Shown here piece by piece: positions 9,897 through 38,325 of a stretch of DNA of 64,000 nucleotides; the stretch's first letter is position 1; each line of letters begins with the position of its first letter. Made by a program: the position numbers and the translations under genes. Source of the stretch: Nitrososphaerota archaeon (GTDB lineage: Archaea > Thermoproteota > Nitrososphaeria > Nitrososphaerales > UBA57); NCBI GenBank assembly GCA_013378375.1, contig JACAFT010000002.1, forward strand, positions 13,802 to 77,801, given 5' to 3'. Below the pieces are notes generated by a model. The model had not been told where the DNA came from. It did no database searches and saw nothing but the letters and a program-made list of their open reading frames with translations.

Positions 9897-10361
9897 TTAC
9901 TTGCTTAATAATATCTCTTCTGGAAGTGAAATCCTTGTACAATACTTACACTGGAGTTTTGGAGGGTGCTTGCTGATAATAATTAGTTCAGAATTAATTG
10001 GTTCATTTGTATTTGATATACACGTTGGATTTGTACATTTAAAAACATCTACGAACCTTTCTGGTAATTCTATATTTCTTTTTTCAGTTATATTATAGTC
10101 CTTAATTATGTTAATAGTTGAATTTGGAGAAATTAACGCTAAACGGTTTGTTTCTTCCACGGCTAGTACTCTATTTTCTATTTTTATTATGTCTTTCTTT
10201 TCAAATTGCTTACTTGTGACGTTTATTGCAACTGACACTTGATTGCCGTCTGTCCCATTAATATCTAAAGCTGTTAATACGTTAAATGCACTTCCTGATT
10301 TGATATGGTCTATTACTGTTCCATGTTGAATTCTATTGATTCTTAATTCCTTTTCTATCAT
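9897..10361 (-). CDS. pyrI: Aspartate carbamoyltransferase regulatory subunit
   Basis: 154 aa. INRIQHGTVIDHI motif and C-terminal Zn site CTNPTC...CKYC. Confidence 0.9.
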   Translation of the reverse strand: MIEKELRINRIQHGTVIDHIKSGSAFNVLTALDINGTDGNQVSVAINVTSKQFEKKDIIKIENRVLAVEETNRLALISPNSTINIIKDYNITEKRNIELPERFVDVFKCTNPTCISNTNEPINSELIIISKHPPKLQCKYCTRISLPEEILLSK

Positions 10362-10420: not shown

Positions 10421-11347
10421 TTGAATAATCCATTTTATAATCGTGATGTAGTTTCAATTAAGGATTTTCAACGTTCCGATCTAGAATATCTCTTTGATGT
10501 TGCAAATAAGCTTGAAACGGGAAAGCCATTGAATTCTCTTACTGGTAAGTTACTTGGTCTGATGTTTCTTGAACCAAGTACTCGAACAAGATTAAGTTTT
10601 GAATCTGCTATGAATTCATTAGGTGGAAAGTCGATTAGCTTTGGAGACCCTTCATCAACATCAACTGAAAAAGGTGAGAATCTTGCTGATAGTTTATCTA
10701 CTGTGGATCGATATGTTGATGCAATAGTTTTACGCCACTCTCGAGAAGGTGTTTCACGTTTTGCTTCTGAGATATGTCAAAAACCTGTCATTAATGCTGG
10801 GAGTGGAAGTGAGGAACATCCTACTCAAGCTATGTTAGATGTTTTTACTATCATGAAAGAATGTGGTAAAGTTGACGATCTTAATATTGCTATTTTTGGA
10901 GATTTAAAATATGGAAGAACTGTTTATTCTTTATTATATGCTTTGTCTAATTACAAACCTAATATTTTTCTTGTATCTCCTGCACTTCTACAACTCCGTA
11001 AAGATCCTTTAATTGATATTCAAGAAAATCTGAATATCTCACAACATGATAATATTTCTGATATAATTTCAAAACTTGATGTTATCTATACAACACGTAT
11101 ACAAAAAGAACGCTTTCCTGATCTTCAAGAATATGAAAGAGTGAAGGGTTCTTATAAAATTGACGAAGAGTTACTTGATCAAGCAAAAGAAAGTTTGATT
11201 CTTCTCCACCCAATGCCTAGATCTGAAGAAATTCCACCTAGTATAGATAAGACTAAATTTGCAAAGTATTTCCAACAAATGAGTTATGGGAAATTAATAA
11301 GATCTGCCTTATTACATCTTGTTTTTAATGAAAATCCTAGTTTCTAG
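10421..11347 (+). CDS. pyrB: Aspartate carbamoyltransferase catalytic subunit
   Basis: 308 aa, TTG start. STRTR carbamoyl-phosphate motif, HPTQ, HPMPR. Confidence 0.95.
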   Translation: MNNPFYNRDVVSIKDFQRSDLEYLFDVANKLETGKPLNSLTGKLLGLMFLEPSTRTRLSFESAMNSLGGKSISFGDPSSTSTEKGENLADSLSTVDRYVDAIVLRHSREGVSRFASEICQKPVINAGSGSEEHPTQAMLDVFTIMKECGKVDDLNIAIFGDLKYGRTVYSLLYALSNYKPNIFLVSPALLQLRKDPLIDIQENLNISQHDNISDIISKLDVIYTTRIQKERFPDLQEYERVKGSYKIDEELLDQAKESLILLHPMPRSEEIPPSIDKTKFAKYFQQMSYGKLIRSALLHLVFNENPSF

Positions 11348-13767
11348 CCACAGCTCGAGTATGAGCATGATAAACATTTACTACACCCTTCTGCATATAT
11401 CAAACTCATTTCTCCACAAGCCCCACATTTACTTTTATTGTGATTGATATCTTTTTCTGCTATATTGACCTCAATTTCTTCTTCTTTTTTTACATCTTGG
11501 ATTTCTATAGCTTTTTGTCCATTTTCTGTATGTATGGAATCTGCAAGTGCATGTGCTATTGCATCTGGTACAGATCTAATTGCTATACTGTTTCCTTTAG
11601 TTTGATGCCATGATACATTCCTTGTTTGTATTCCTCTCATTGTTTTAATTATTGAAGTTACATTAACATTTGATTGTAGTGCTATTGAAATCAATCTCCC
11701 CATTCCTTCATACGCTGCCTTTTCTTCATCTCCTGATTTTCCTCTTTCAATGAATACTTCTCTTGGTATTCCATTTTCATCTTTGTTGATTGTTATAAAT
11801 AATCCGCTGTTTGTATAGGTGAATCTATATGTTCTACCTTCTAGGTATTCTGGCCTTTTATATCCTCCAGATAAAACATGTAAACTTTCATTCTCGGATT
11901 TTGAACTACGTAGATTTTTTGTTTTATCTGTTTCTAAAACTTGTTCATCTAAACATCCATCTCTATATACTGTTATTCCTTTACAATGTGTTTTGTATGC
12001 TAATTTGTACGCATTGTTTACATCTTCTATTTTTGCTTCATTTGGTAAATTGATTGTTTTACTTACTCCATTATCTACAAATTCCTGAAATGCTGATTGC
12101 ATTTTTACATGTTGTTCTCCGGATAAATCTGCGGCAATTGGAAACATTTCTTTTATTTCATTTGGAATCCATGACAAGTTTTGAATACTTCCTCCGTTCT
12201 TTGATATTTCATTTATTTTTTCTCTATCTAATGCAATGTTTTTTTCTTCTAATGCTAAAGAAAATGATTCGTTTAAATAATGAAGTTCTTCAAATTCTTC
12301 ACTTCTTTCTTTGATCCTCGAATGTCTAACAAATACTAAAGCAAAATGTGGTTCTATTCCAGGTGAGCAATTGGCTATTGTACCAATTGAACCTGTTGGC
12401 GCAATAATTGTACAATTAACATTTCTGACTTTTTTATCAACTTTTGCAAAGTCACTTTTATCCCAATTTACAAATGTTCCCCTTGTTTCAGCTAATTCTT
12501 CTGACATTTTCCAAGATACTTCTGAAATAAATTTCATTAATTTTCTTGCTAATATATATGATTGTTCAGTTCCATATTTTATTTTTAATTTACTTAATAA
12601 ATCCGCAAAACCCATTACACCTAATCCTAATCTTCTCATATCTTGTGATAATTCTTGAATTTCTTTTGTCGGATATTTATTTGCAGTAACAACATTATCC
12701 AAGAAATGTATTGCATCTCGTGTACATTTTTTTAATTTATCCCAATCAATATCATCTTCTTTTTCATTTACGAATTTAGAAATATTTATTGAACCTAAAT
12801 TACAACTTTCATTAGGAAGTAATGGAACTTCACCACAAGGGTTGGTTGATTCAATTTTATAATGTTCTCTTAATGGATTTGAATTACTGTTATTTATTTT
12901 ATCAATAAATATTAAACCTGGATCTGCACATTCCCATGCACATTTTATAATTTTTTCCCATAGTTCTTTTGCTTTAATTCTTTTTGCTTCTCCTCCACAC
13001 AGTTTGCATTTTGGTATTGAGCTTATATCTACTTCTGGAAAAATATTTTTTGAACATTTATTACATTTTAAAACTTCGTTCCCTGTTCTTGGATTTATAA
13101 ATACATGATCATCATTGTTTTCTAATTCTCTCATAAATTCATCTGTTATTGCTACTGAAACATTAAATTCTTTCATTATTTTTGCTTCGCTTTGTAGATT
13201 CATATTATTTTTTTTCATTTCAATAAATTCTAATACATCTGGATGTTCGATATTTAATATTCCCATGTTTGCTCCTCGTCTTTTTCCTCCTTGTTTGATA
13301 ACTTGTGTACATTTATCAAATAATTGCATAAATGATACTGGTCCTGATGCTACTGAACCTGTTGAACCTACTTGGTCGCCCTCTGGTCTTAAGTTCGAAA
13401 ATGAAAAACCTGTACCTCCTCCTGTTTTTTGAACTATTGCTTGTGTCTTTACAGCATCTAATATGGAACTTGTGTTATCATTTACTGGTAGTACAAAACA
13501 TGCTGATAATTGACCTAAAGACGCACCGGCATTCATTAATGTTGGAGAATTTGGCAAAAATTCAAAATTTTTCATCATTTTATAAAATATTTCTTCTGTT
13601 TCTTCATGTTTAAAATCATTATATTCTTTGTCTGAATTTGCTATAGCTTTTGCAACTCTTCTAAACAAATCATCCGGATTTTCCTGCCTGCCATCTTCAA
13701 ATTTTAGCAAATATCTTGCCTTTAATACTTTCATTACATTTTCAGGTAAAGTTTCACTTATTTCCAA
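11344..13767 (-). CDS. nrdJ: Class II (adenosylcobalamin-dependent) ribonucleotide reductase, no ATP-cone, Cys-rich C-terminal Zn-finger tail
   Basis: 807 aa. TTG start with AAGGAG about 9 nt upstream. Blocks LPNSPTLMNAG, CFVLPV, NPCGE. Tail CGACGEMSLIYAEGCSKCLSCSYSSCG. Confidence 0.9.
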   Translation of the reverse strand: MEISETLPENVMKVLKARYLLKFEDGRQENPDDLFRRVAKAIANSDKEYNDFKHEETEEIFYKMMKNFEFLPNSPTLMNAGASLGQLSACFVLPVNDNTSSILDAVKTQAIVQKTGGGTGFSFSNLRPEGDQVGSTGSVASGPVSFMQLFDKCTQVIKQGGKRRGANMGILNIEHPDVLEFIEMKKNNMNLQSEAKIMKEFNVSVAITDEFMRELENNDDHVFINPRTGNEVLKCNKCSKNIFPEVDISSIPKCKLCGGEAKRIKAKELWEKIIKCAWECADPGLIFIDKINNSNSNPLREHYKIESTNPCGEVPLLPNESCNLGSINISKFVNEKEDDIDWDKLKKCTRDAIHFLDNVVTANKYPTKEIQELSQDMRRLGLGVMGFADLLSKLKIKYGTEQSYILARKLMKFISEVSWKMSEELAETRGTFVNWDKSDFAKVDKKVRNVNCTIIAPTGSIGTIANCSPGIEPHFALVFVRHSRIKERSEEFEELHYLNESFSLALEEKNIALDREKINEISKNGGSIQNLSWIPNEIKEMFPIAADLSGEQHVKMQSAFQEFVDNGVSKTINLPNEAKIEDVNNAYKLAYKTHCKGITVYRDGCLDEQVLETDKTKNLRSSKSENESLHVLSGGYKRPEYLEGRTYRFTYTNSGLFITINKDENGIPREVFIERGKSGDEEKAAYEGMGRLISIALQSNVNVTSIIKTMRGIQTRNVSWHQTKGNSIAIRSVPDAIAHALADSIHTENGQKAIEIQDVKKEEEIEVNIAEKDINHNKSKCGACGEMSLIYAEGCSKCLSCSYSSCG

Positions 13768-13887
13768 ATCTTATTTCTCCTTCTGGACAATGTAATAACA
13801 CATCCTAGTATATCTATATTTGGTTGTGGAAATTTCCTTTGATGTGTATTTACCGGCAAATACTTAAGATATGTGGTGTTAAAAATA

Positions 13888-13931
13888 AAATACAAATTTA
13901 ACATATACTATGATATGTGAATTTTGTATTT
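13888..13931. promoter_or_regulatory. Nested inverted repeats in the nrdJ upstream region: outer AAATACAAA/TTTGTATTT, inner ACATAT/ATATGT
   Basis: Outer arms 13888-13896 and 13923-13931; inner arms 13901-13906 and 13913-13918; read directly. GATATGTG also occurs as a direct repeat at 13868 and 13912. Confidence 0.35.
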
Positions 13932-14101
13932 CATACTTTGTTGTTAAATAAGTTGACAAGAATTTTTTTTTTATTTTATCCGGTATATAATTCAACACGT
14001 AAACGATTAGAAATTCAAAAAATGTGCTTATTTTGACCTTTTTCTTTCTAGTGTTTATAATTTAAGTGTCAATTGTTTATGACTTTCGAGTTATAACGTA
14101 A

Positions 14102-16189
14102 TTATCTTATTGGATATTCTTCTAATGAAGTTGAATTACAATTTTTACATTTATCGGTGTTATGAGTGTTTTTCACTGTACATGAAATACAAACTTTCAT
14201 TCTATTATAAAATTTGAAATATGAAATTTTATTGGACGTTTTTTTCGTAATTCCTATGAACTTCTTTGATGAAATATTGGATGTGTCCAAATAAATAGAA
14301 TATCCTCCTTCAAATTTATTTATATAATTGCTTATTTGATCTACTTTTTCAAGCTCATTAGGATTGATCGTGATAGATTGTGAATAGTAATTACTTTCTG
14401 ATTTCACTCTACTTTTCCCAAATTTCTCAATATCTATGTTTGTGAACCTCTCACTTGAGTCGTCTCGTATTGAGGATAATCCAAATTCTTCTCCTGTTTT
14501 TTTACTAAATTTTGCAATTTCTTCATTTGCTGTATCCAAAATTTTACCTGCTAACTTTGTTTTCTCTTTATTTGTTGATTCTGAGCCTAAAAGATTATTT
14601 ATTGCTTCATTTATTCCTGTTAAATTTATTATTAAAGGGATTTTCTGACTTGAAATAATTCCAATATTTGTATTTAAAAATGGTAATAATCCTTTTCCTG
14701 TTATATCGTCAATAATTGATCTTCTTTTTGAAAGAGTAGAAATTGCGATTTTTAACATTAAAGCTACTTTTGCGCGAAAATATGCTTCATCTTTATTTGA
14801 TTCATATGAAAGTTTTGGGAGATTGATTGCTACTTCGTGTAATGAAATATTTCCTCCTACTATTTTCTTATTTAGTGATTTACTAATTCCTGAAAATGCA
14901 AATATATTTTTTGAATTATTATTTATTCCAATAAATCCGCCATTTTTTACCGTCGATAAAATTTTTATAATTACTTCTTCTTCATTTTTTTGGAATTTAC
15001 ACGGAATTATTAATGCTATTTTGGGCATTGCAATAGAATCTAAATAAGTGTTATAACTTTCTAAAATAATTTTTTTAATCTTGATTAATTTTTTTTCATC
15101 AATTTTTGAATCTTTTGTTATGGATAGATCTAGTGTAATGAAAGGACTGTCTTTTTCAGATACTATTTGAGATATCATTTTGAACATTTGTACTATGCTA
15201 TCCTTTGCATCTGTTATTGTTTTATTATCAATTAGATCTGAAATATATCCTAAAAAATTATTATAGACTATTTCTTTATTGATTTCATTATTTAATTCAG
15301 ATGTTATTAATATTATATTTGTTAAACTATCAGTAAATTTTTTTGGTGTTGTTATATGTATTGAATTAAGTAATTTTCCTTGAATTTTAATTCCTTGTGC
15401 AGGTAATGAATATAAATCAATAAATATAGTATCTGGTTTTAATCCCCACGATCCTACATTTGCAATATTTATATCTCCAGAAAAATGTGCGTCAGTTACA
15501 TCTCTTGATAATTGATTTAATAGCAAGTATTCTGAAAATACTCTTTTTGATGTTTGTTTAATTAAAGAATTGATTGCATCTGTACTTCTGGAATATTGAT
15601 TAAACATTTGAGTTATGTCATGAATTGGTAATCCTATTCTTGTTAGTTTATGCCTGTATTCTTCATGTCCATGTTCAATTAATAAAGCGTTCACTATTTC
15701 TCTAATCAATGGTGCGGTTAGGTAACTTGTTTGAAATTTATGTACTCTAGCTTCTGCTTCACCTGTCATTTTCTCTGCCAATTCCATCGGCATACCTGCT
15801 TCTTTTACTAATACTTGTAATATTTTATCTGGTTTGAATTCTTCCATTGTTTCCCTTGATGTTCTAACATAAGTTTTTCCACTTTCTATTACACTTTGTT
15901 CTTCTATCTGTCTTGTTAGGTTAAGTATTAACCTTCCCAAATTTGTTACTACATAACGTCTTTCTGCACGGTTTAAACTAACGAGTTGCATTCTAACTAA
16001 TTTTCTTAAATGATATGCAAATTTTCCTGATTCTTTTTTTGATTTAAATCCTGCTAGTGTTTTTAATTCAGAATAACTTAATGGCCCTTTAGAGTTTAAT
16101 ATTTTTAAAATATCGAGCCTATTATCTGAAGCAATTACTGAATATATCGCCCTTACTCTTTTTGTTGTTCTGTAAGGTCCACTTGACAT
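14102..16189 (-). CDS. Multidomain protein: N-terminal ArsR-like winged HTH, then ATP-cone, then a large uncharacterised domain ending in a CxxC-x10-CxxC Zn ribbon (class III RNR-like layout without a glycyl-radical motif)
   Basis: 695 aa. wHTH: NRLDILKILNSKGPLSYSELKTLAG...FAYHLRKLVRMQLV. ATP-cone-like: YVRTSRETMEEFKPDKILQVLVKEAG...LIREIVNALLIEHGHEEYRHKLTRIG. C-terminus: CISCTVKNTHNTDKCKNCNSTSLEEYPIR. Confidence 0.7.
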   Translation of the reverse strand: MSSGPYRTTKRVRAIYSVIASDNRLDILKILNSKGPLSYSELKTLAGFKSKKESGKFAYHLRKLVRMQLVSLNRAERRYVVTNLGRLILNLTRQIEEQSVIESGKTYVRTSRETMEEFKPDKILQVLVKEAGMPMELAEKMTGEAEARVHKFQTSYLTAPLIREIVNALLIEHGHEEYRHKLTRIGLPIHDITQMFNQYSRSTDAINSLIKQTSKRVFSEYLLLNQLSRDVTDAHFSGDINIANVGSWGLKPDTIFIDLYSLPAQGIKIQGKLLNSIHITTPKKFTDSLTNIILITSELNNEINKEIVYNNFLGYISDLIDNKTITDAKDSIVQMFKMISQIVSEKDSPFITLDLSITKDSKIDEKKLIKIKKIILESYNTYLDSIAMPKIALIIPCKFQKNEEEVIIKILSTVKNGGFIGINNNSKNIFAFSGISKSLNKKIVGGNISLHEVAINLPKLSYESNKDEAYFRAKVALMLKIAISTLSKRRSIIDDITGKGLLPFLNTNIGIISSQKIPLIINLTGINEAINNLLGSESTNKEKTKLAGKILDTANEEIAKFSKKTGEEFGLSSIRDDSSERFTNIDIEKFGKSRVKSESNYYSQSITINPNELEKVDQISNYINKFEGGYSIYLDTSNISSKKFIGITKKTSNKISYFKFYNRMKVCISCTVKNTHNTDKCKNCNSTSLEEYPIR

Positions 16190-16369
16190 AATATAATTCG
16201 TACTTCAAAAACACATTTAAAGGTTAAGTAAAGTTGACTAAAAATGACCTTTTGTGTTTTGGGTGAAAAATCTTTAACGTAACTGGAAAATATTCATATT
16301 TTCTTCTGATCTAATTATATTTTTGGATATTCTTTTTATTTTTCTCTTTTCTATTAGTGTTACAATAAT

Positions 16370-16445
16370 GGGGTGGTAGTCTAGTTTGGTCTAAGATGTT
16401 AGCTTTGGGAGCTAGTGATCGGGAGTTCAAATCTCTCTCACCCCA
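16370..16445 (+). tRNA. tRNA-Pro (anticodon UGG), no intron, CCA not encoded
   Basis: Hand fold: acceptor GGGGTGG/TCACCCC, D stem GTCT/AGAT, anticodon arm TTAGC-TTTGGGA-GCTAG, T arm GGGAG-TTCAAAT-CTCTC, discriminator A. Confidence 0.9.
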
Positions 16446-16461
16446 TCCTTGTACAATCTTA

Positions 16462-17886
16462 TTATTCTTGAATTATTCTAATTGGAATTGATTGAGTTAT
16501 TGATTCACTTTTTACACTTATCATAATGGTGTAAATTCCTGGATCTAAATTCTGTGATTCGATAATTACTTTATTCTGATATTTGTTTTCTATGAATTTC
16601 TCTACAGGTTCAAATGACACAGAAATATTTTCTAATTTGCCATTGTTTGAAAATGTACCTGAAGATTTAATATCTATTTCAATTCTTTTTATTGGATCAA
16701 TAGTAATAAAAAATTCAACCGGCGTATCTGATTTTAGACTAATTTCTCTTGTTGAAGTAGTTACTGAAAAATCAAGTGGTTTATTTGCATCTAAAAATCC
16801 AATTTTATTTTCTGTCCATTCTGTAAACCATATATTTCCTTGTTTATCTATATCAAATTGCAGATGATTGGATATACCTCCCCAATCTGCATTTTTCGTT
16901 GGTATTTCATATTCTATTAATATTTGTTTATTTAAATCAAATTTTCCTATTGTATTTGCTTGATGTATATTTAACCATAAATTGCCATGTATATCGAATT
17001 TATTCCAATATGGCAAAGTAGTTGAATAATATGTATCGCTTGACGATGTAACAAATTTCGTAAATGATTTGTTAATTAAATTCATTACCACAAACTGACT
17101 CGATCCATGATCATTGATCCATATATTGTTATTATTTATAGAAATTCCTACCGGTGATGAAATACCTTTTGGTAATTCATAGAAATTAAATTGATTATCT
17201 TTGTAACTTCCAAGATATCCCTCAATTGGCCAAGTAAGCATTGTAAACCAAATTGTATTGTTTGAGTCGACAGCTATGCCTCCAAGAACTTCTAATTCTG
17301 TTTGAGGTTGTATTTCTATTATTCCTTTACTTGAATTTACTTTTGTTTGATTTGGATCTACGATTGCTATTTTTTTACCAAAAATTTCTGAAACAATTAA
17401 ATGATTATTTGTATTTTTTATTATTTGTACAGGATAACTGTTTTGTGTTTCAAGTCTATAATTAACAAATGAATTATTTTGTTTGTAAAATCTCCATATG
17501 AAATTATTTTTATGATCTGTAAACCAAATTTCATCATCTAGGGATAATATACTCCAAGATTCTATGTTTTGATAATAGTTTGATATTGTATAATCTGTGA
17601 ATATATTTTTACTTGGGTTAAAAGAAACTAGTTTACTATTGTTATTTTGTATAAACCATACGATTCCATTGTTGTCTGTAGTTATTGCTATTGGCGCTGA
17701 GCAACTATCCGGGATTAAATATTCTGATATGTATCTATTATTATTTACTTTTCTTTCATTACATGTGTTTTCTAATGTATTTGATTTTGAACCGTTGAAA
17801 TCATTTGTTAAGATTGTTCCAACTAATAATCCCGAAATTACAGGTATTAATATAATTAATATCATCTTTTTCTTCTTTATATTCAA
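16462..17886 (-). CDS. Secreted or membrane-anchored beta-propeller repeat protein (Vgb/NHL-like blades) with C-terminal Ig-like region
   Basis: 474 aa. N-terminal signal/TM helix. Recurring blade signature: GIVWFIQ, EIWFTD, TIWFTM, NIWINDHG, NLWLNIH, NIWFTEW. Confidence 0.6.
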   Translation of the reverse strand: MNIKKKKMILIILIPVISGLLVGTILTNDFNGSKSNTLENTCNERKVNNNRYISEYLIPDSCSAPIAITTDNNGIVWFIQNNNSKLVSFNPSKNIFTDYTISNYYQNIESWSILSLDDEIWFTDHKNNFIWRFYKQNNSFVNYRLETQNSYPVQIIKNTNNHLIVSEIFGKKIAIVDPNQTKVNSSKGIIEIQPQTELEVLGGIAVDSNNTIWFTMLTWPIEGYLGSYKDNQFNFYELPKGISSPVGISINNNNIWINDHGSSQFVVMNLINKSFTKFVTSSSDTYYSTTLPYWNKFDIHGNLWLNIHQANTIGKFDLNKQILIEYEIPTKNADWGGISNHLQFDIDKQGNIWFTEWTENKIGFLDANKPLDFSVTTSTREISLKSDTPVEFFITIDPIKRIEIDIKSSGTFSNNGKLENISVSFEPVEKFIENKYQNKVIIESQNLDPGIYTIMISVKSESITQSIPIRIIQE

Positions 17887-17972
17887 AAACTACTCACTCA
17901 CTACTCACATTTTATTAATATTATAGAATCCTTTTAATTTATTGTAATGTACTCAATTCCATAATAATTGAA

Positions 17973-18092
17973 GCCGGGGTTGCCGAGCCAGGTCAAAGGC
18001 GCTGGACTTAAGATCACTCTCAATTGAGAGTCATGCAATATGACATCCCGTCACTTAGGTGTTCGTGGGTTCAAATCCCACCCCCGGCACCA
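17973..18092 (+). tRNA. tRNA-Leu (anticodon UAA), class II with long variable arm, 32-nt intron at the canonical 37/38 position (18013-18044), 3' CCA encoded
   Basis: Acceptor GCCGGGG/CCCCGGC. Anticodon arm CTGGA-CTTAAGA-TCCCG after removal of ATCACTCTCAATTGAGAGTCATGCAATATGAC (one U-C mismatch). Variable arm CAC-TTAG-GTG. T arm GTGGG-TTCAAAT-CCCAC. Confidence 0.8.
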
Positions 18093-29918: not shown

Positions 29919-30230
29919 ATGACAAATAATTTGTTTAACTATAAATCTATTTCTAATAATGAAGTTAAAGTAGTGAATCTTTGTGATTCAGAATGTATTG
30001 GAAAAACTCTTTCTGATGGAACCTTTGAAATTGATATTTCTGATTCTTATTTTGGTGGACAATCTATTGGTAAAACTGAAGCAATTGACTTATTGAATAA
30101 TTCTAATATGTTGAATCTTGTGGGAAATCGGATTGTTAAACTTGCTCTCGAACTTAATCTTGCATCGATTGAATCAGTTAAAGAAATTGACGGTATTTCT
30201 TTTTTATTAATTTATAAATTTACACAATGA
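29919..30230 (+). CDS. Conserved archaeal small protein (DUF424-like) downstream of aIF2 beta
   Basis: The ORF track opens at 29868 inside the previous gene; ATG 29919 follows the aIF2-beta stop. The family call comes from memory of the gene neighbourhood and is tentative. Confidence 0.45.
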   Translation: MTNNLFNYKSISNNEVKVVNLCDSECIGKTLSDGTFEIDISDSYFGGQSIGKTEAIDLLNNSNMLNLVGNRIVKLALELNLASIESVKEIDGISFLLIYKFTQ

Positions 30231-35756: not shown

Positions 35757-37196
35757 CTAATATGATTTTGCAAAATAAACTGCGTTTGTTGCATTTTTTC
35801 TACAAACAATACACGCCGAATCTATTATTTCGTCTTCAATTAGTCTTATATCTGCTCCTGTTTTATCTTTTATTTTATCTTCACACTCTCTATTTCCACA
35901 CCAGACTGATTTGACAAATCCTCCTTCACTATTTAATTTACTGCATAATTCATTATAGTCCTCGATTCTGTGTATCATCTCATTATGTTTCTTTTTTGCA
36001 CTTTCAAATAATTCATCCTGAATAGTATTCAATTCTTTCAGTATATGGTCTGATAAATTATCATTTATAGTAATATTTTTCTTGTCTCGTGAGGTTCTTT
36101 TTACTACAACTAATGAATTATTTTCTAAATCTTTTGGTCCTATTTCTATTCTTATAGGGACTCCTTTCATCTCCCATTGATTGAATTTCCATCCTGGTGT
36201 GTGATTTTCACTAGAGTCTGCATAACTTCTTATTCCTTTTCCATCTAATTGTTTTGTAATGTCTTCAATTACGCTCAAAATCTCCTTTTTCTTTACTTCA
36301 TCATAGTAAATTGGAATAATAACAACTTGTATTGGAGCAATTTTTGGTGGTAAAATTAGACCCTTGTCGTCACCATGTATCATTATCAAAGCTCCTATTA
36401 ATCTCCAAGATACTCCCCAAGATGTTTGCCATGTGAAGTGCTGTTTTTCATCTTTTCCTAAGAAATTTATATCAAAGGGTTTTGAGAAATTTTGTCCTAG
36501 ATGATGTGATGTTCCCATTTGTAATGCTTTTCCGTCTGGCATAATTCCTTCTAATGTCAATGTATAATCCGCTCCTACGAATTTTTCTTTGTCACTTTTT
36601 CTTCCAGTTAATATTGGCAGAGCTAAATATTCATTTACAAAATTTTTATATAATTTTAACATAAAGTCAACTTGTTTCGTTGCATCTTCTTTAGTTTCAT
36701 GTACTGTATGTCCTTCTTGCCATAAGAATTCTGAAGTTCTAATGAATGGTTTTGTATCTTTTATTTCTGCTCTTAGTACTGAGTTCCAAAAATTTAATTT
36801 TAATGGTAGATCTCTCCAACTCTTTATCCACTTTGAATATGATTCATAAGCTATTGTTTCTGACGTTGGTCTTATTGCTAATTTATTTTCTATATCATTG
36901 TCTCCAGTTCTTGTTACCCAAAATACTTCTGGAGTAAAACCTTTGAAATGATCTGATTCTCTATTTAATAATGATTCAGGAATTAATAATGGGAAATATG
37001 CATTCTTTGTATTATCTTTTTTAAATTCCTTATCTAGAATTGATTGTATGTTCTCCCATATTGAAAAACCATATTCTCTTAAAATAATGAATCCTTTTAC
37101 TGAAGAATAGTCAACTAATTCTGCTCTTGTTACAACTTGTGTATACCATTCTGAGAAGTTATCATTTTTCTTTTCTGTTATTCCAATTTTTGTCAA
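35757..37196 (-). CDS. proS: Prolyl-tRNA synthetase, archaeal/eukaryal type
   Basis: 479 aa. Class II motifs, C-terminal Zn-binding domain (CGNRECE...CIVC) and terminal Tyr. Confidence 0.95.
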   Translation of the reverse strand: MTKIGITEKKNDNFSEWYTQVVTRAELVDYSSVKGFIILREYGFSIWENIQSILDKEFKKDNTKNAYFPLLIPESLLNRESDHFKGFTPEVFWVTRTGDNDIENKLAIRPTSETIAYESYSKWIKSWRDLPLKLNFWNSVLRAEIKDTKPFIRTSEFLWQEGHTVHETKEDATKQVDFMLKLYKNFVNEYLALPILTGRKSDKEKFVGADYTLTLEGIMPDGKALQMGTSHHLGQNFSKPFDINFLGKDEKQHFTWQTSWGVSWRLIGALIMIHGDDKGLILPPKIAPIQVVIIPIYYDEVKKKEILSVIEDITKQLDGKGIRSYADSSENHTPGWKFNQWEMKGVPIRIEIGPKDLENNSLVVVKRTSRDKKNITINDNLSDHILKELNTIQDELFESAKKKHNEMIHRIEDYNELCSKLNSEGGFVKSVWCGNRECEDKIKDKTGADIRLIEDEIIDSACIVCRKNATNAVYFAKSY

Positions 37197-37377
37197 TTTA
37201 ATTTTAACCTATTTTTCTGCGTAACATTAGATTTTCTTATTATTAATAATTTTATTACTTGATCTTAATTACCATTATATAAAAATATCACAAAATTTAT
37301 ATATAACATCTACACAACAACCGGAATATCAAGTATAAGAATACTTAAATATGAATATAAAATTGGTTGATGTTTAA

Positions 37378-38325
37378 TTGAAAAAAGATGAATTAGGTTC
37401 CGTAGTTAACGACGATAGAGCTATTGGTAATAAAGTTCAAAGTTGTCAGAGATGTGGCAAGGGTCCTATAGTTGTTGATTCTTCTGGCGGAGAAATGACT
37501 TGTAGTCATTGTGGTTTTGTTATAGTTGATAAAATTGAAGAAGAAGGTCCTGAATGGCGTGCATTTTCTAAAGAAGAAAAAGATGATAGATCTAGGACTG
37601 GTGTTCCGTCTTCATTAGCTATGCATGATATGGGTTTAGCTACTGTTATTGGTGCAGAAGATCGTGATGCTGCTGGACGTTCATTGCCCGCATCTATGAA
37701 AGCTGCCATTGAAAGATTACGTACCTGGGATGGAAGAAGTCAAGTTCATGAACCTGTTGATAGAAATCTTCGACAAGCTTTTAGTGAATTAGATCGATTG
37801 GCTGATAAATTAAATCTTAGTGATGCAGTTATTGAGAAAGCTGCATATGTGTATAGAAAGGCACTTGAAAAAGGGTTGGTTCGAGGACGTTCTATTTCTG
37901 CATTAATTGCCGCATCATTATATGCTGCTTGTCGTGACACTGAAACTCCTAGAACTTTAAAAGATGTTGCTGCCGCTTGTAATATTAAGAAAAAAGATAT
38001 TGCTCGTTGTTATAGATTACTTTTACGAGAAATGGATCTTCGGATGCCTGTTGTTGATCCTACTAAATGTGTTTCTCGAATTGCCAGTAAAGCTGGTTTA
38101 TCTGAAAAAACAAAACGTAGTGCGTTATTAATTTTAAAGAAAGCCGAGGATACTAGGACTTCTGCTGGTAAAGATCCTATGGGTCTTGCTGCTGCTGCTT
38201 TATACGTTGCTTGCGTAATGGAGGGTGAAAATAAAACTCAGAAAGACGTTGCGGAGGCTGCTGGAGTAACTGAAGTTACTATTCGTAACCGTTATAAAGG
38301 CTTGAAATCAGCATTACAGCTCTAG
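37378..38325 (+). CDS. tfb: Transcription initiation factor B (TFB)
   Basis: 315 aa, TTG start. Zn ribbon CQRCG...CSHCG, B-reader, two cyclin folds. Noticeably less AT-rich than its neighbours. Confidence 0.95.
   Translation: MKKDELGSVVNDDRAIGNKVQSCQRCGKGPIVVDSSGGEMTCSHCGFVIVDKIEEEGPEWRAFSKEEKDDRSRTGVPSSLAMHDMGLATVIGAEDRDAAGRSLPASMKAAIERLRTWDGRSQVHEPVDRNLRQAFSELDRLADKLNLSDAVIEKAAYVYRKALEKGLVRGRSISALIAASLYAACRDTETPRTLKDVAAACNIKKKDIARCYRLLLREMDLRMPVVDPTKCVSRIASKAGLSEKTKRSALLILKKAEDTRTSAGKDPMGLAAAALYVACVMEGENKTQKDVAEAAGVTEVTIRNRYKGLKSALQL

Follow-up and report, generated by a model that had tools for sequence, protein, structure and literature searches.

A class III ribonucleotide reductase-like pseudo-enzyme with a winged-helix domain as a probable regulator of DNA-precursor genes in ammonia-oxidising archaea

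The window analysed here is a 64-kb stretch (64,000 nucleotides [nt]) of a Nitrososphaerota archaeon (GenBank assembly GCA_013378375.1, contig JACAFT010000002.1, positions 13,802 to 77,801 of the forward strand). At window positions 14102 to 16189 it encodes a protein of 695 amino acids (aa), called X below, in which an N-terminal winged helix-turn-helix (wHTH) domain and an ATP-cone precede a body related to the class III ribonucleotide reductase (RNR) NrdD. We propose, with a probability of roughly 0.6, that X is a pseudo-enzyme derived from NrdD that acts as a transcription factor for the genes of deoxyribonucleoside triphosphate (dNTP) supply. On the sequence evidence, X is most likely the switch controlling DNA-precursor synthesis in ammonia-oxidising archaea. 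The features that an earlier note on this DNA had described, leaving the strand unstated, were all found in their places on the minus strand, and a candidate operator common to the X promoter and the region upstream of the neighbouring nrdJ gene is now added to them. The computational checks that the note had proposed all came out in favour of the core of its interpretation, and none of the outcomes it had named as refuting was seen. Coordinates are collected in Table 1.

The wHTH, the ATP-cone and the NrdD fold, as proposed from the letters alone, were each detected both by profile (Pfam) and by structure comparison (Foldseek). The Pfam wHTH family DUF7347 matched residues 15 to 89 of X (37.8 bits, cutoff 27.6), the ATP-cone family PF03477 matched residues 107 to 178 (32.1 bits, cutoff 25.8), and NRDD matched residues 204 to 688 (139 bits) over positions 7 to 531 of its 562 profile positions. 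Positions 532 to 562 of NRDD were unmatched, and the glycyl-radical end of the profile is therefore not covered. HTH_20 at residues 20 to 66 scored 24.5 bits, slightly under its cutoff of 27, and the ArsR-family profiles fell below cutoff on X (21 versus 55 bits for HTH_metalloreg; 12 versus 22 for HTH_5). A structure model of residues 1 to 194, built from a more diverse alignment than the full-length model, had a predicted local distance difference test score (pLDDT) of 85, with values of 90 to 97 in the wHTH (AlphaFold2). The wHTH was modelled as three helices with a recognition helix at residues 51 to 66 and a beta-wing at residues 70 to 81, from which a long helix (residues 83 to 103) leads to a cone consisting of a beta-hairpin and helices. 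With this model, Foldseek retrieved ArsR, CadC, SmtB, CzrA and NolR at a target-normalised template modelling (TM) score of about 0.7, together with the cones of NrdR, NrdA, NrdB and NrdD at a root mean square deviation (rmsd) of 1.8 to 3.4 Å, the value of 1.8 Å being that to NrdD and NrdB cones.

The full-length AlphaFold model had a pLDDT of 72, high in the body, and its 36 best matches in the PDB were all NrdD (E values down to 3e−20), including those of S. thermophilus, T. maritima, P. copri and T4, which bears out the suggestion of a degenerate NrdD scaffold. In a family profile alignment, Cys290 of T4 NrdD aligned to I429 of X, a variable column without Cys, Asn311 aligned to S449, and Cys79 fell within an insert that is absent from the X family. 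In T4 NrdD, C290 is the thiyl-radical cysteine, C79 the second active-site cysteine and N311 the active-site asparagine. Residue 616 of T. maritima NrdD aligned to residue 692 of X, so that the position of the radical Gly621 lies past the C terminus. An intact Bathyarchaeia NrdD (locus L082) was also compared, which carries a RPFCQSHD motif, a CC-R finger loop, a zinc ribbon and a SRITGY motif. Its RPFCQSHD aligned to KPDTIFID in X and its CC-R to FS--G, with both cysteines replaced, and the chain of X stopped 2 residues short of the Gly in SRITGY. X contains five cysteines in all (C397, C667, C670, C681 and C684), the last four forming the CxxC-x10-CxxC motif at residues 667 to 684. As described earlier, this motif is followed by 11 residues without Gly, the chain ending in STSLEEYPIR. 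Across an alignment of 77 full-length orthologues, the conserved Cys columns were the four zinc-ribbon positions only (99 to 100% each), the tails after the last Cys were 6 to 14 aa long, and any Cys in the finger-loop region (residues 400 to 460) was seen in 7 sequences. All NCBIfam NrdD equivalogs scored far under cutoff on X (110 versus 326 for TIGR02487, the others lower). The three catalytic features that define NrdD are thus lacking, and X should not be filed as NrdD. With both active-site cysteines and the glycyl-radical domain gone, X to all appearances cannot be a reductase, in agreement with what the earlier note had argued from the missing radical site.

The possibility that X is a functional RNR or another radical enzyme with a non-canonical radical site deserves mention, since public annotation is inconsistent and mostly reads "anaerobic ribonucleoside-triphosphate reductase" and since non-glycine aminoacyl radical enzymes occur in the wider glycyl-radical superfamily (PMC11528403). 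Moreover, an exhaustive search (1085 matches) revealed Bathyarchaeia proteins of 700 to 800 aa with the layout of wHTH, cone and NrdD-like body, which keep a degenerate tail past the zinc ribbon, have lost the finger-loop Cys and have Ala, Thr or Leu in place of the radical Gly. Set against this are the absence of any conserved barrel Cys, the deletion of the entire radical domain in Nitrososphaerota, the equivalog scores and the finding that the barrel is the least conserved part of the protein. An active or non-canonical reductase was rejected on the active-site and C-terminal alignments and, being effectively refuted by them, is very improbable. The gene of the activase NrdG was not among the gene calls adjoining X in the six distant loci L081 to L086, the loci screened for it. 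Two NrdD-like proteins without an HTH (P0253 and P0262) also lack the finger-loop Cys; one of them is cut short immediately behind the zinc ribbon, and the Gly motif is missing from the other. Catalytically dead NrdD paralogues are therefore not confined to the HTH-fused family.

X was found to be widespread and strongly conserved. More than 3900 relatives (database clusters) were present in the protein database; the best 120 of these were all 687 to 702 aa long with the same architecture, and those with an organism name came almost all from Nitrososphaerales or Thaumarchaeota. A scan with one genome per species found the gene in at least 512 species genomes, nearly all labelled Nitrososphaerota and including Nitrosopumilales, Nitrososphaeraceae, Nitrosotalea, Nitrosomirales, Gagatemarchaeum and Conexivisphaerales. 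Mean pairwise identity among the 77 orthologues was 85% in the wHTH, 80% in the cone and 61% in the linker that follows, compared with 37 to 41% in the barrel, 59% in the NLPR region and 45% in the zinc ribbon. The wHTH and the cone are under very strong purifying selection. Their conservation, far above that of the barrel, indicates that the DNA-binding and cone domains are under the strongest selection, whereas an enzyme would show the reverse. The loss of the catalytic residues and the relaxed conservation of the barrel might equally be looked for in a decaying relic of an ancestral nrdD without present function. Such a relic is refuted by conservation and has next to no probability, given the intact full-length open reading frames (ORFs) in all those genomes, the near-invariant N-terminal 190 residues and the conserved zinc ribbon, NLPR region and gene position.

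To see what X is linked to, 80 loci (L001 to L080) and six Bathyarchaeia and other distant loci (L081 to L086) were compared. In all loci with sufficient downstream sequence (about 70 of 80), the next gene after X on the same strand was nrdJ, encoding a class II RNR. This holds in the window, where the 807-aa NrdJ, matched by Ribonuc_red_lgN, Ribonuc_red_lgC and TSCPD in Pfam and by NrdJ_Z in NCBIfam (698 bits versus a cutoff of 400), is separated from X by a spacer of 334 bp and is the presumed regulatory target. A scan of this product with Pfam and NCBIfam detected no ATP-cone, as had been claimed. Linkage with RNR genes, the check that had been asked of synteny, proved to be conserved across Nitrososphaerota and into Bathyarchaeia, where locus L085 has X followed by nrdJ, and L082 has X followed by an intact nrdD, a thioredoxin-like gene and a divergent aspartate transcarbamoylase gene. 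In L083, the dCTP deaminase gene dcd lies 17 nt downstream of X.

The linked NrdJ proteins all scored above the equivalog cutoff and had two architectures. One has no cone and a C-terminal TSCPD domain (the window, L010, L016 and L085), and the other has an N-terminal canonical ATP-cone scoring 68 to 76 bits (L006, L059, L069 and L076). Two architectures at one locus imply that the RNR gene has been replaced downstream of a fixed regulator gene, and the linkage of X is independent of a cone-less RNR. The earlier connection of X with an ATP-cone-less nrdJ therefore stands for the window and fails as a general rule, many of the linked NrdJs and the L082 NrdD having a cone of their own. We infer that X arose from a duplicated nrdD before the split of Nitrososphaeria and Bathyarchaeia, and that it kept its position when nrdD gave way to nrdJ in the aerobic lineage.

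The cone-less NrdJ of the window would also suit a role at the protein level, in which X, as a dead RNR paralogue, joins the active NrdJ or NrdD as a subunit with an allosteric or inhibitory effect and presents its cone in trans, the HTH being secondary. Pseudo-enzyme paralogues often regulate their active relatives. We nevertheless regard this as improbable. The partners of X (NrdJ with a cone, NrdJ without one, intact NrdD, dcd) are unlike in their surfaces, a diversity that speaks for action on DNA; in addition, the wHTH is the best-conserved part of X, and a conserved palindromic motif is present at the promoters. Since linked RNRs often own a cone, X is not simply supplying a missing one, and a cone given in trans to cone-less NrdJ was rejected as a general rule.

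The motif was identified in the regions upstream of X and in the spacers between X and nrdJ, which together served as the target regions in counts over 916 kb of loci. The spacers were found to share an element of the form [TTGAC-N5-]GTCAA-N6-TT(G/A/C)AC-N7-CGTCTCAT(TGAC) that starts about 15 to 35 nt past the X stop codon and recurs in clades with otherwise very different spacers, of compositions from AT-rich to GC-rich. The composite element occurred 33 times in the 916 kb (both strands), 32 of them in the spacer and 1 elsewhere. The palindromes GTCAA-N6-TTGAC and TTGAC-N5-GTCAA together occurred 22 times in the 27 kb of target regions, compared with 1 occurrence in 35 kb of other non-ORF DNA and 1 in 854 kb of ORF-covered DNA. 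TTGAC-N5-GTCAA by itself was found 12 times, always in the spacer at 14 to 36 nt past the X stop codon, and 0 times elsewhere. Half-sites (GTCAA/TTGAC) had a density of 8.2 per kb in the target regions and 2.0 per kb elsewhere.

Upstream of X, marine clades carry GTCAA-N6-TTGAC or GTCAA-N6-TTAAC immediately before the TATA box. In soil clades, TTGACC is located 2 to 3 nt downstream of the TATA box, and a second TTGAC is frequently present about 32 nt upstream; Nitrososphaera has TTGAC-N6-GTCAA (for example, AATTGACCAAAAGGTCAATT). In some genomes, such as that of L007, the same palindrome is found at both promoters. The sites at the X promoter abut or overlap the TATA box and the TFB recognition element (BRE), which suggests autoregulation. 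In soil clades, the spacer element is followed at a fixed distance of 64 to 66 nt, or about six turns of the helix, by a further GTCAAC or GTTAAC, which in turn precedes a TATA-like box by about 22 nt; these arrays before nrdJ suggest a higher-order or looped complex.

In the window, the candidate operator at the X promoter, GTCAACTTTACTTAAC, abuts a TATA-like TTTAAAT (16215 to 16221) and ends 34 nt upstream of the X start codon, and a GTCAA-N6-TTGAC or TTAAG site is present at the equivalent place in L001 to L009. The spacer site, GTCAACTTATTTAAC, lies at a position homologous to the conserved GTCAA-N6-TTSAC element of other clades. A wider regulon in the window was considered and rejected, as relaxed matches were at chance level (4 found, 1.7 expected) and those at 30177 to 30191 and 37192 to 37208 flank unrelated genes. 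The latter, GTCAATTTAATTTTAAC on the plus strand, lies at the spacer between divergent genes for prolyl-tRNA synthetase (35757 to 37196) and transcription factor B (TFB; 37378 to 38325).

The spacer element was also considered as an RNA structure or riboswitch. In the spacers of L006 to L009 and L053, an inverted copy, ATGAGACGC, is located about 40 to 60 nt upstream of GCGTCTCAT and encloses with it the GTCAA-N6-TTGAC site. For L006 and L008, a 65-nt hairpin (ATGAGAC...GTCTCAT) was predicted (z about −4) in which changes appear to compensate one another; no such hairpin was predicted for L007 and L009. An Rfam scan of window positions 11000 to 18000 returned a tRNA-Pro as its single match, z was about 0 in the soil clades, and the hairpin is thermodynamically plausible only in some marine-clade loci; the RNA alternative was therefore rejected as a general reading, while in the marine clade the element may still form such a structure. 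That soil clades conserve the spacer sequence without a stable fold favours recognition at the DNA level.

Two further observations were made on the spacers. The CGTCTCAT part often forms a 13-bp palindrome of its own (ATGAG-CGT-CTCAT), as in the spacers of L016, L031, L045, L050 and others, and it could serve as a further operator, recognised by a different factor or by a different surface of X. In four Nitrososphaeraceae loci (L069 to L071 and L074), GTCAA/TTGAC is absent from the spacer; TTACTA-N10-TAGTAA is present in the spacers of L069 and L071, with TACTAtTAGTA upstream of X in L069 and CACTAtTAGTG in L068. The operator may have diverged in this family.

Several findings weigh against X as a regulator acting through this operator on dNTP genes. 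Half-sites are absent from 10 of 74 spacers (mostly Nitrososphaeraceae) and from 16 of 77 regions upstream of X. Both GTCAA-N6-TTGAC and TTGAC-N5/6-GTCAA are found, two orientations that one dimer geometry does not account for, and a factor other than X could bind the half-sites. In the clade of the window, about 125 nt separate the spacer site from the likely nrdJ TATA box downstream of it, and the CGTCTCAT part is missing. No dNTP gene adjoins X in three of the six distant relatives (L081, L084 and L086). The loci are phylogenetically related, so that counts of loci and motifs do not represent independent events. The last two points concern the cone, which has T110-S111 instead of the canonical Lys-Arg pair and whose profile matched no solved ATP-cone in a search of the PDB.

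The cone therefore requires closer consideration. In calling it a clear ATP-cone-like segment, the earlier note was right as to the family, the Pfam score exceeding the cutoff, and went too far as to its type, which is a divergent "VRTS" form. With hhalign, the X cone aligned to the canonical cones of sibling NrdJ proteins with a probability of 91.5% (E = 8.7e−7), and the Lys-Arg of the canonical iRKRDG was placed on Thr110-Ser111, flanked by the invariant Arg109 and by Arg/Lys112. A single-sequence phmmer search of the X cone against the PDB returned zero matches; its likeness was recovered by profile-profile and fold comparison only. R109, E116, F118, the PLIRE motif and Y178-R179 are invariant in the X cone across the phylum. 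The canonical pair, in the N-terminal hairpin of the cone, makes phosphate contacts in E. coli NrdA (K9/R10), and its absence from X makes the effector uncertain. Binding of ATP or dATP by the X cone is plausible, not assured. In intact archaeal NrdDs, too, a "VRTS" cone stands before the core, in most cases preceded by an extra, more canonical cone, and the "VRTS" cone may therefore not be the nucleotide sensor even in these enzymes. Two of them found among the distant matches (P0235 and P0267), of about 1200 aa with apparent large intein-like insertions in the barrel, have two cones each, one canonical and one of the "VRTS" type.

These properties of the cone would be accounted for if X regulated nrdJ and itself by binding DNA in response to a signal other than ATP or dATP, with the cone and the NrdD body as an oligomerisation scaffold or as a sensor of redox state at the zinc ribbon or of another metabolite. 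The substituted pair, the failure of a sequence profile to reach any solved cone and the second cone of intact NrdDs all point in this direction. Conversely, 80% identity and invariant residues across the phylum exceed the needs of a scaffold, the fold matches nucleotide-loaded cones (rmsd, 1.8 to 3.4 Å), and Arg109 and Arg/Lys112 could assume the phosphate contacts. We consider a signal unrelated to ATP or dATP unlikely.

For X as a regulator of dNTP supply, the following sequence of events is envisaged. An NrdD ancestor would have kept its fold, N-terminal cone and zinc ribbon, lost the active-site cysteines and the glycyl-radical domain, and gained an ArsR-type wHTH at its N terminus. X would dimerise through its NrdD-like body, as NrdD enzymes do, and the dimer would set two winged helices on the GTCAA/TTGAC inverted repeats. 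Nucleotide bound to the cone might, more speculatively, reposition the wHTH or alter the oligomeric state and in this way alter DNA binding, and such nucleotide-dependent binding might tie the transcription of RNR genes to the (d)NTP pool in the manner of bacterial NrdR. The specificity site inherited from NrdD might contribute as well. According to a recent cryo-electron microscopy study (PMC12662201), the cone domains of class III RNRs are repositioned by ATP and dATP. A more far-reaching version, which we put forward tentatively and hold to be rather doubtful, is that X reads the size of the dNTP pool as well as its balance through its ancestral allosteric sites (the activity cone and the dNTP specificity site at the dimer interface). 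It would thereby set the transcription of whichever RNR class is present, nrdD in anaerobic Bathyarchaeia and nrdJ in aerobic ammonia oxidisers, and of other dNTP genes such as dcd.

X was compared with known systems. Like NrdR, it joins a small ATP-cone-type domain to a DNA-binding domain and is encoded beside nrd genes, with palindromic boxes in nrd promoters that are in some cases phased by whole helical turns, and its cone superposes on NrdR cones. In NrdR, however, the DNA-binding part is an N-terminal zinc ribbon, whereas in X it is an ArsR-type wHTH and the zinc ribbon is C-terminal and derived from NrdD. X has a dead RNR barrel of about 480 aa where NrdR has none, its GTCAA/TTGAC motif is unrelated to NrdR boxes, and the K-R of the cone is replaced by T-S. 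NrdR family profiles in Pfam and NCBIfam gave no match on X. X is an analogue of NrdR, homologous to it in the cone only. The statement that archaea lack NrdR, which formed part of the earlier argument, is too strong, as NrdR is rare in archaea (PMC9110341) and a haloarchaeal nrdR has been listed (PMC3019208).

With NrdD, X shares the overall fold, the N-terminal cone, the NLPR and TRLGLP regions and the Cys4 zinc ribbon, and its closest sequence relatives outside its own family are archaeal NrdDs with a "VRTS" cone. It differs from NrdD in lacking the thiyl-radical Cys, the second active-site Cys and the glycyl-radical domain, in having the additional wHTH and in its occurrence next to a class II RNR in organisms that oxidise ammonia aerobically. 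The ArsR/SmtB proteins resemble X in their wHTH fold and act as dimers on inverted repeats, but they sense metals or metalloids as stand-alone proteins of about 100 aa, whereas the wHTH of X is one domain of a much larger protein. In design, we liken X to MocR/GabR and NrtR, in which a wHTH is joined to a full-size enzyme fold with lost or reduced catalysis that serves as a dimerisation and ligand-sensing module, with targets in the same pathway. These regulators differ from X in using an aminotransferase or Nudix fold instead of an RNR barrel and in serving another pathway. We know of no described transcription regulator derived from an RNR. A search of the full-text literature found no description of a wHTH-NrdD-like protein, although its coverage of subscription journals was thin and absence from it is no proof.

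Table 1. Coordinates of X, its domains, the adjacent nrdJ gene and the candidate operator sites in the window
Feature	Position	Strand	Basis or remark
X gene; 695-aa wHTH, ATP-cone, pseudo-NrdD and Zn-ribbon protein	14102..16189	-	ORF, ATG start; Pfam
X residues 10-98; ArsR/SmtB-type wHTH	15896..16162	-	Pfam DUF7347, AlphaFold2 model, Foldseek, 85% identity
X residues 104-186; divergent "VRTS"-type ATP-cone	15632..15880	-	Pfam, hhalign, Foldseek, 80% identity
X residues 187-660; NrdD barrel without catalytic residues	14210..15631	-	Pfam NRDD, Foldseek, alignments
X residues 661-690; Cys4 zinc ribbon	14120..14209	-	Conserved Cys columns, alignment to intact NrdD
nrdJ; class II (B12-dependent) RNR, 807 aa, no ATP-cone, C-terminal TSCPD and Cys-rich tail	11344..13767	-	Pfam, NCBIfam
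Candidate operator at X promoter, GTCAACTTTACTTAAC (GTCAA-N6-TTAAC)	16223..16238	-	Single GTCAA-N6-TTRAC match in the 64-kb window
Candidate operator in X-nrdJ spacer, GTCAACTTATTTAAC	13943..13957	-	176 nt upstream of nrdJ start codon
Two more spacer half-sites, TTGAC (14068-14072) and GGTCAA (14033-14038)	14033..14072	-	

Some neighbouring genes were also noted. A divergent tRNA-Pro (TGG) gene lies just upstream of the X promoter (16369 to 16448, plus strand), and a tRNA-like sequence upstream of X is also present in L001 to L005 and in many soil-clade loci. Farther upstream (16462 to 17886, minus strand), a gene for a 474-aa product with an N-terminal hydrophobic segment and beta-propeller repeats of the Vgb_lyase/SGL type keeps its place in the closest relatives, L001 to L005. 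On the other side, pyrI (9897 to 10361, minus strand) and pyrB (10421 to 11347, plus strand) are divergent and form no operon; pyrB and nrdJ are convergent, with a 4-bp overlap at the 3' end of nrdJ. The arrangement of X, RNR gene and pyrB recurs in many Nitrososphaerota loci and in the Bathyarchaeia locus L082, with pyrI as a neighbour in part of them, and in L081 pyrI directly follows X.

The linkage between X and RNR genes survives replacement of the enzyme, the adjacent reductase being nrdD in one case and nrdJ in others. As X is widely annotated as an anaerobic reductase, inference from metagenome-assembled genomes could wrongly assign anaerobic DNA synthesis to aerobic ammonia oxidisers. 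The control of RNR transcription in most archaea is an open question, which X and its candidate operator make testable, and the hosts of X dominate marine and soil nitrification. If the proposal is correct, X would be an unusual case of an enzyme turned regulator of its own pathway with its allosteric hardware kept. Should X indeed read the dNTP pool, it would be the master regulator of dNTP supply in two archaeal lineages of very high abundance, and archaea would have found their own, independent answer to the problem that NrdR solves in bacteria.

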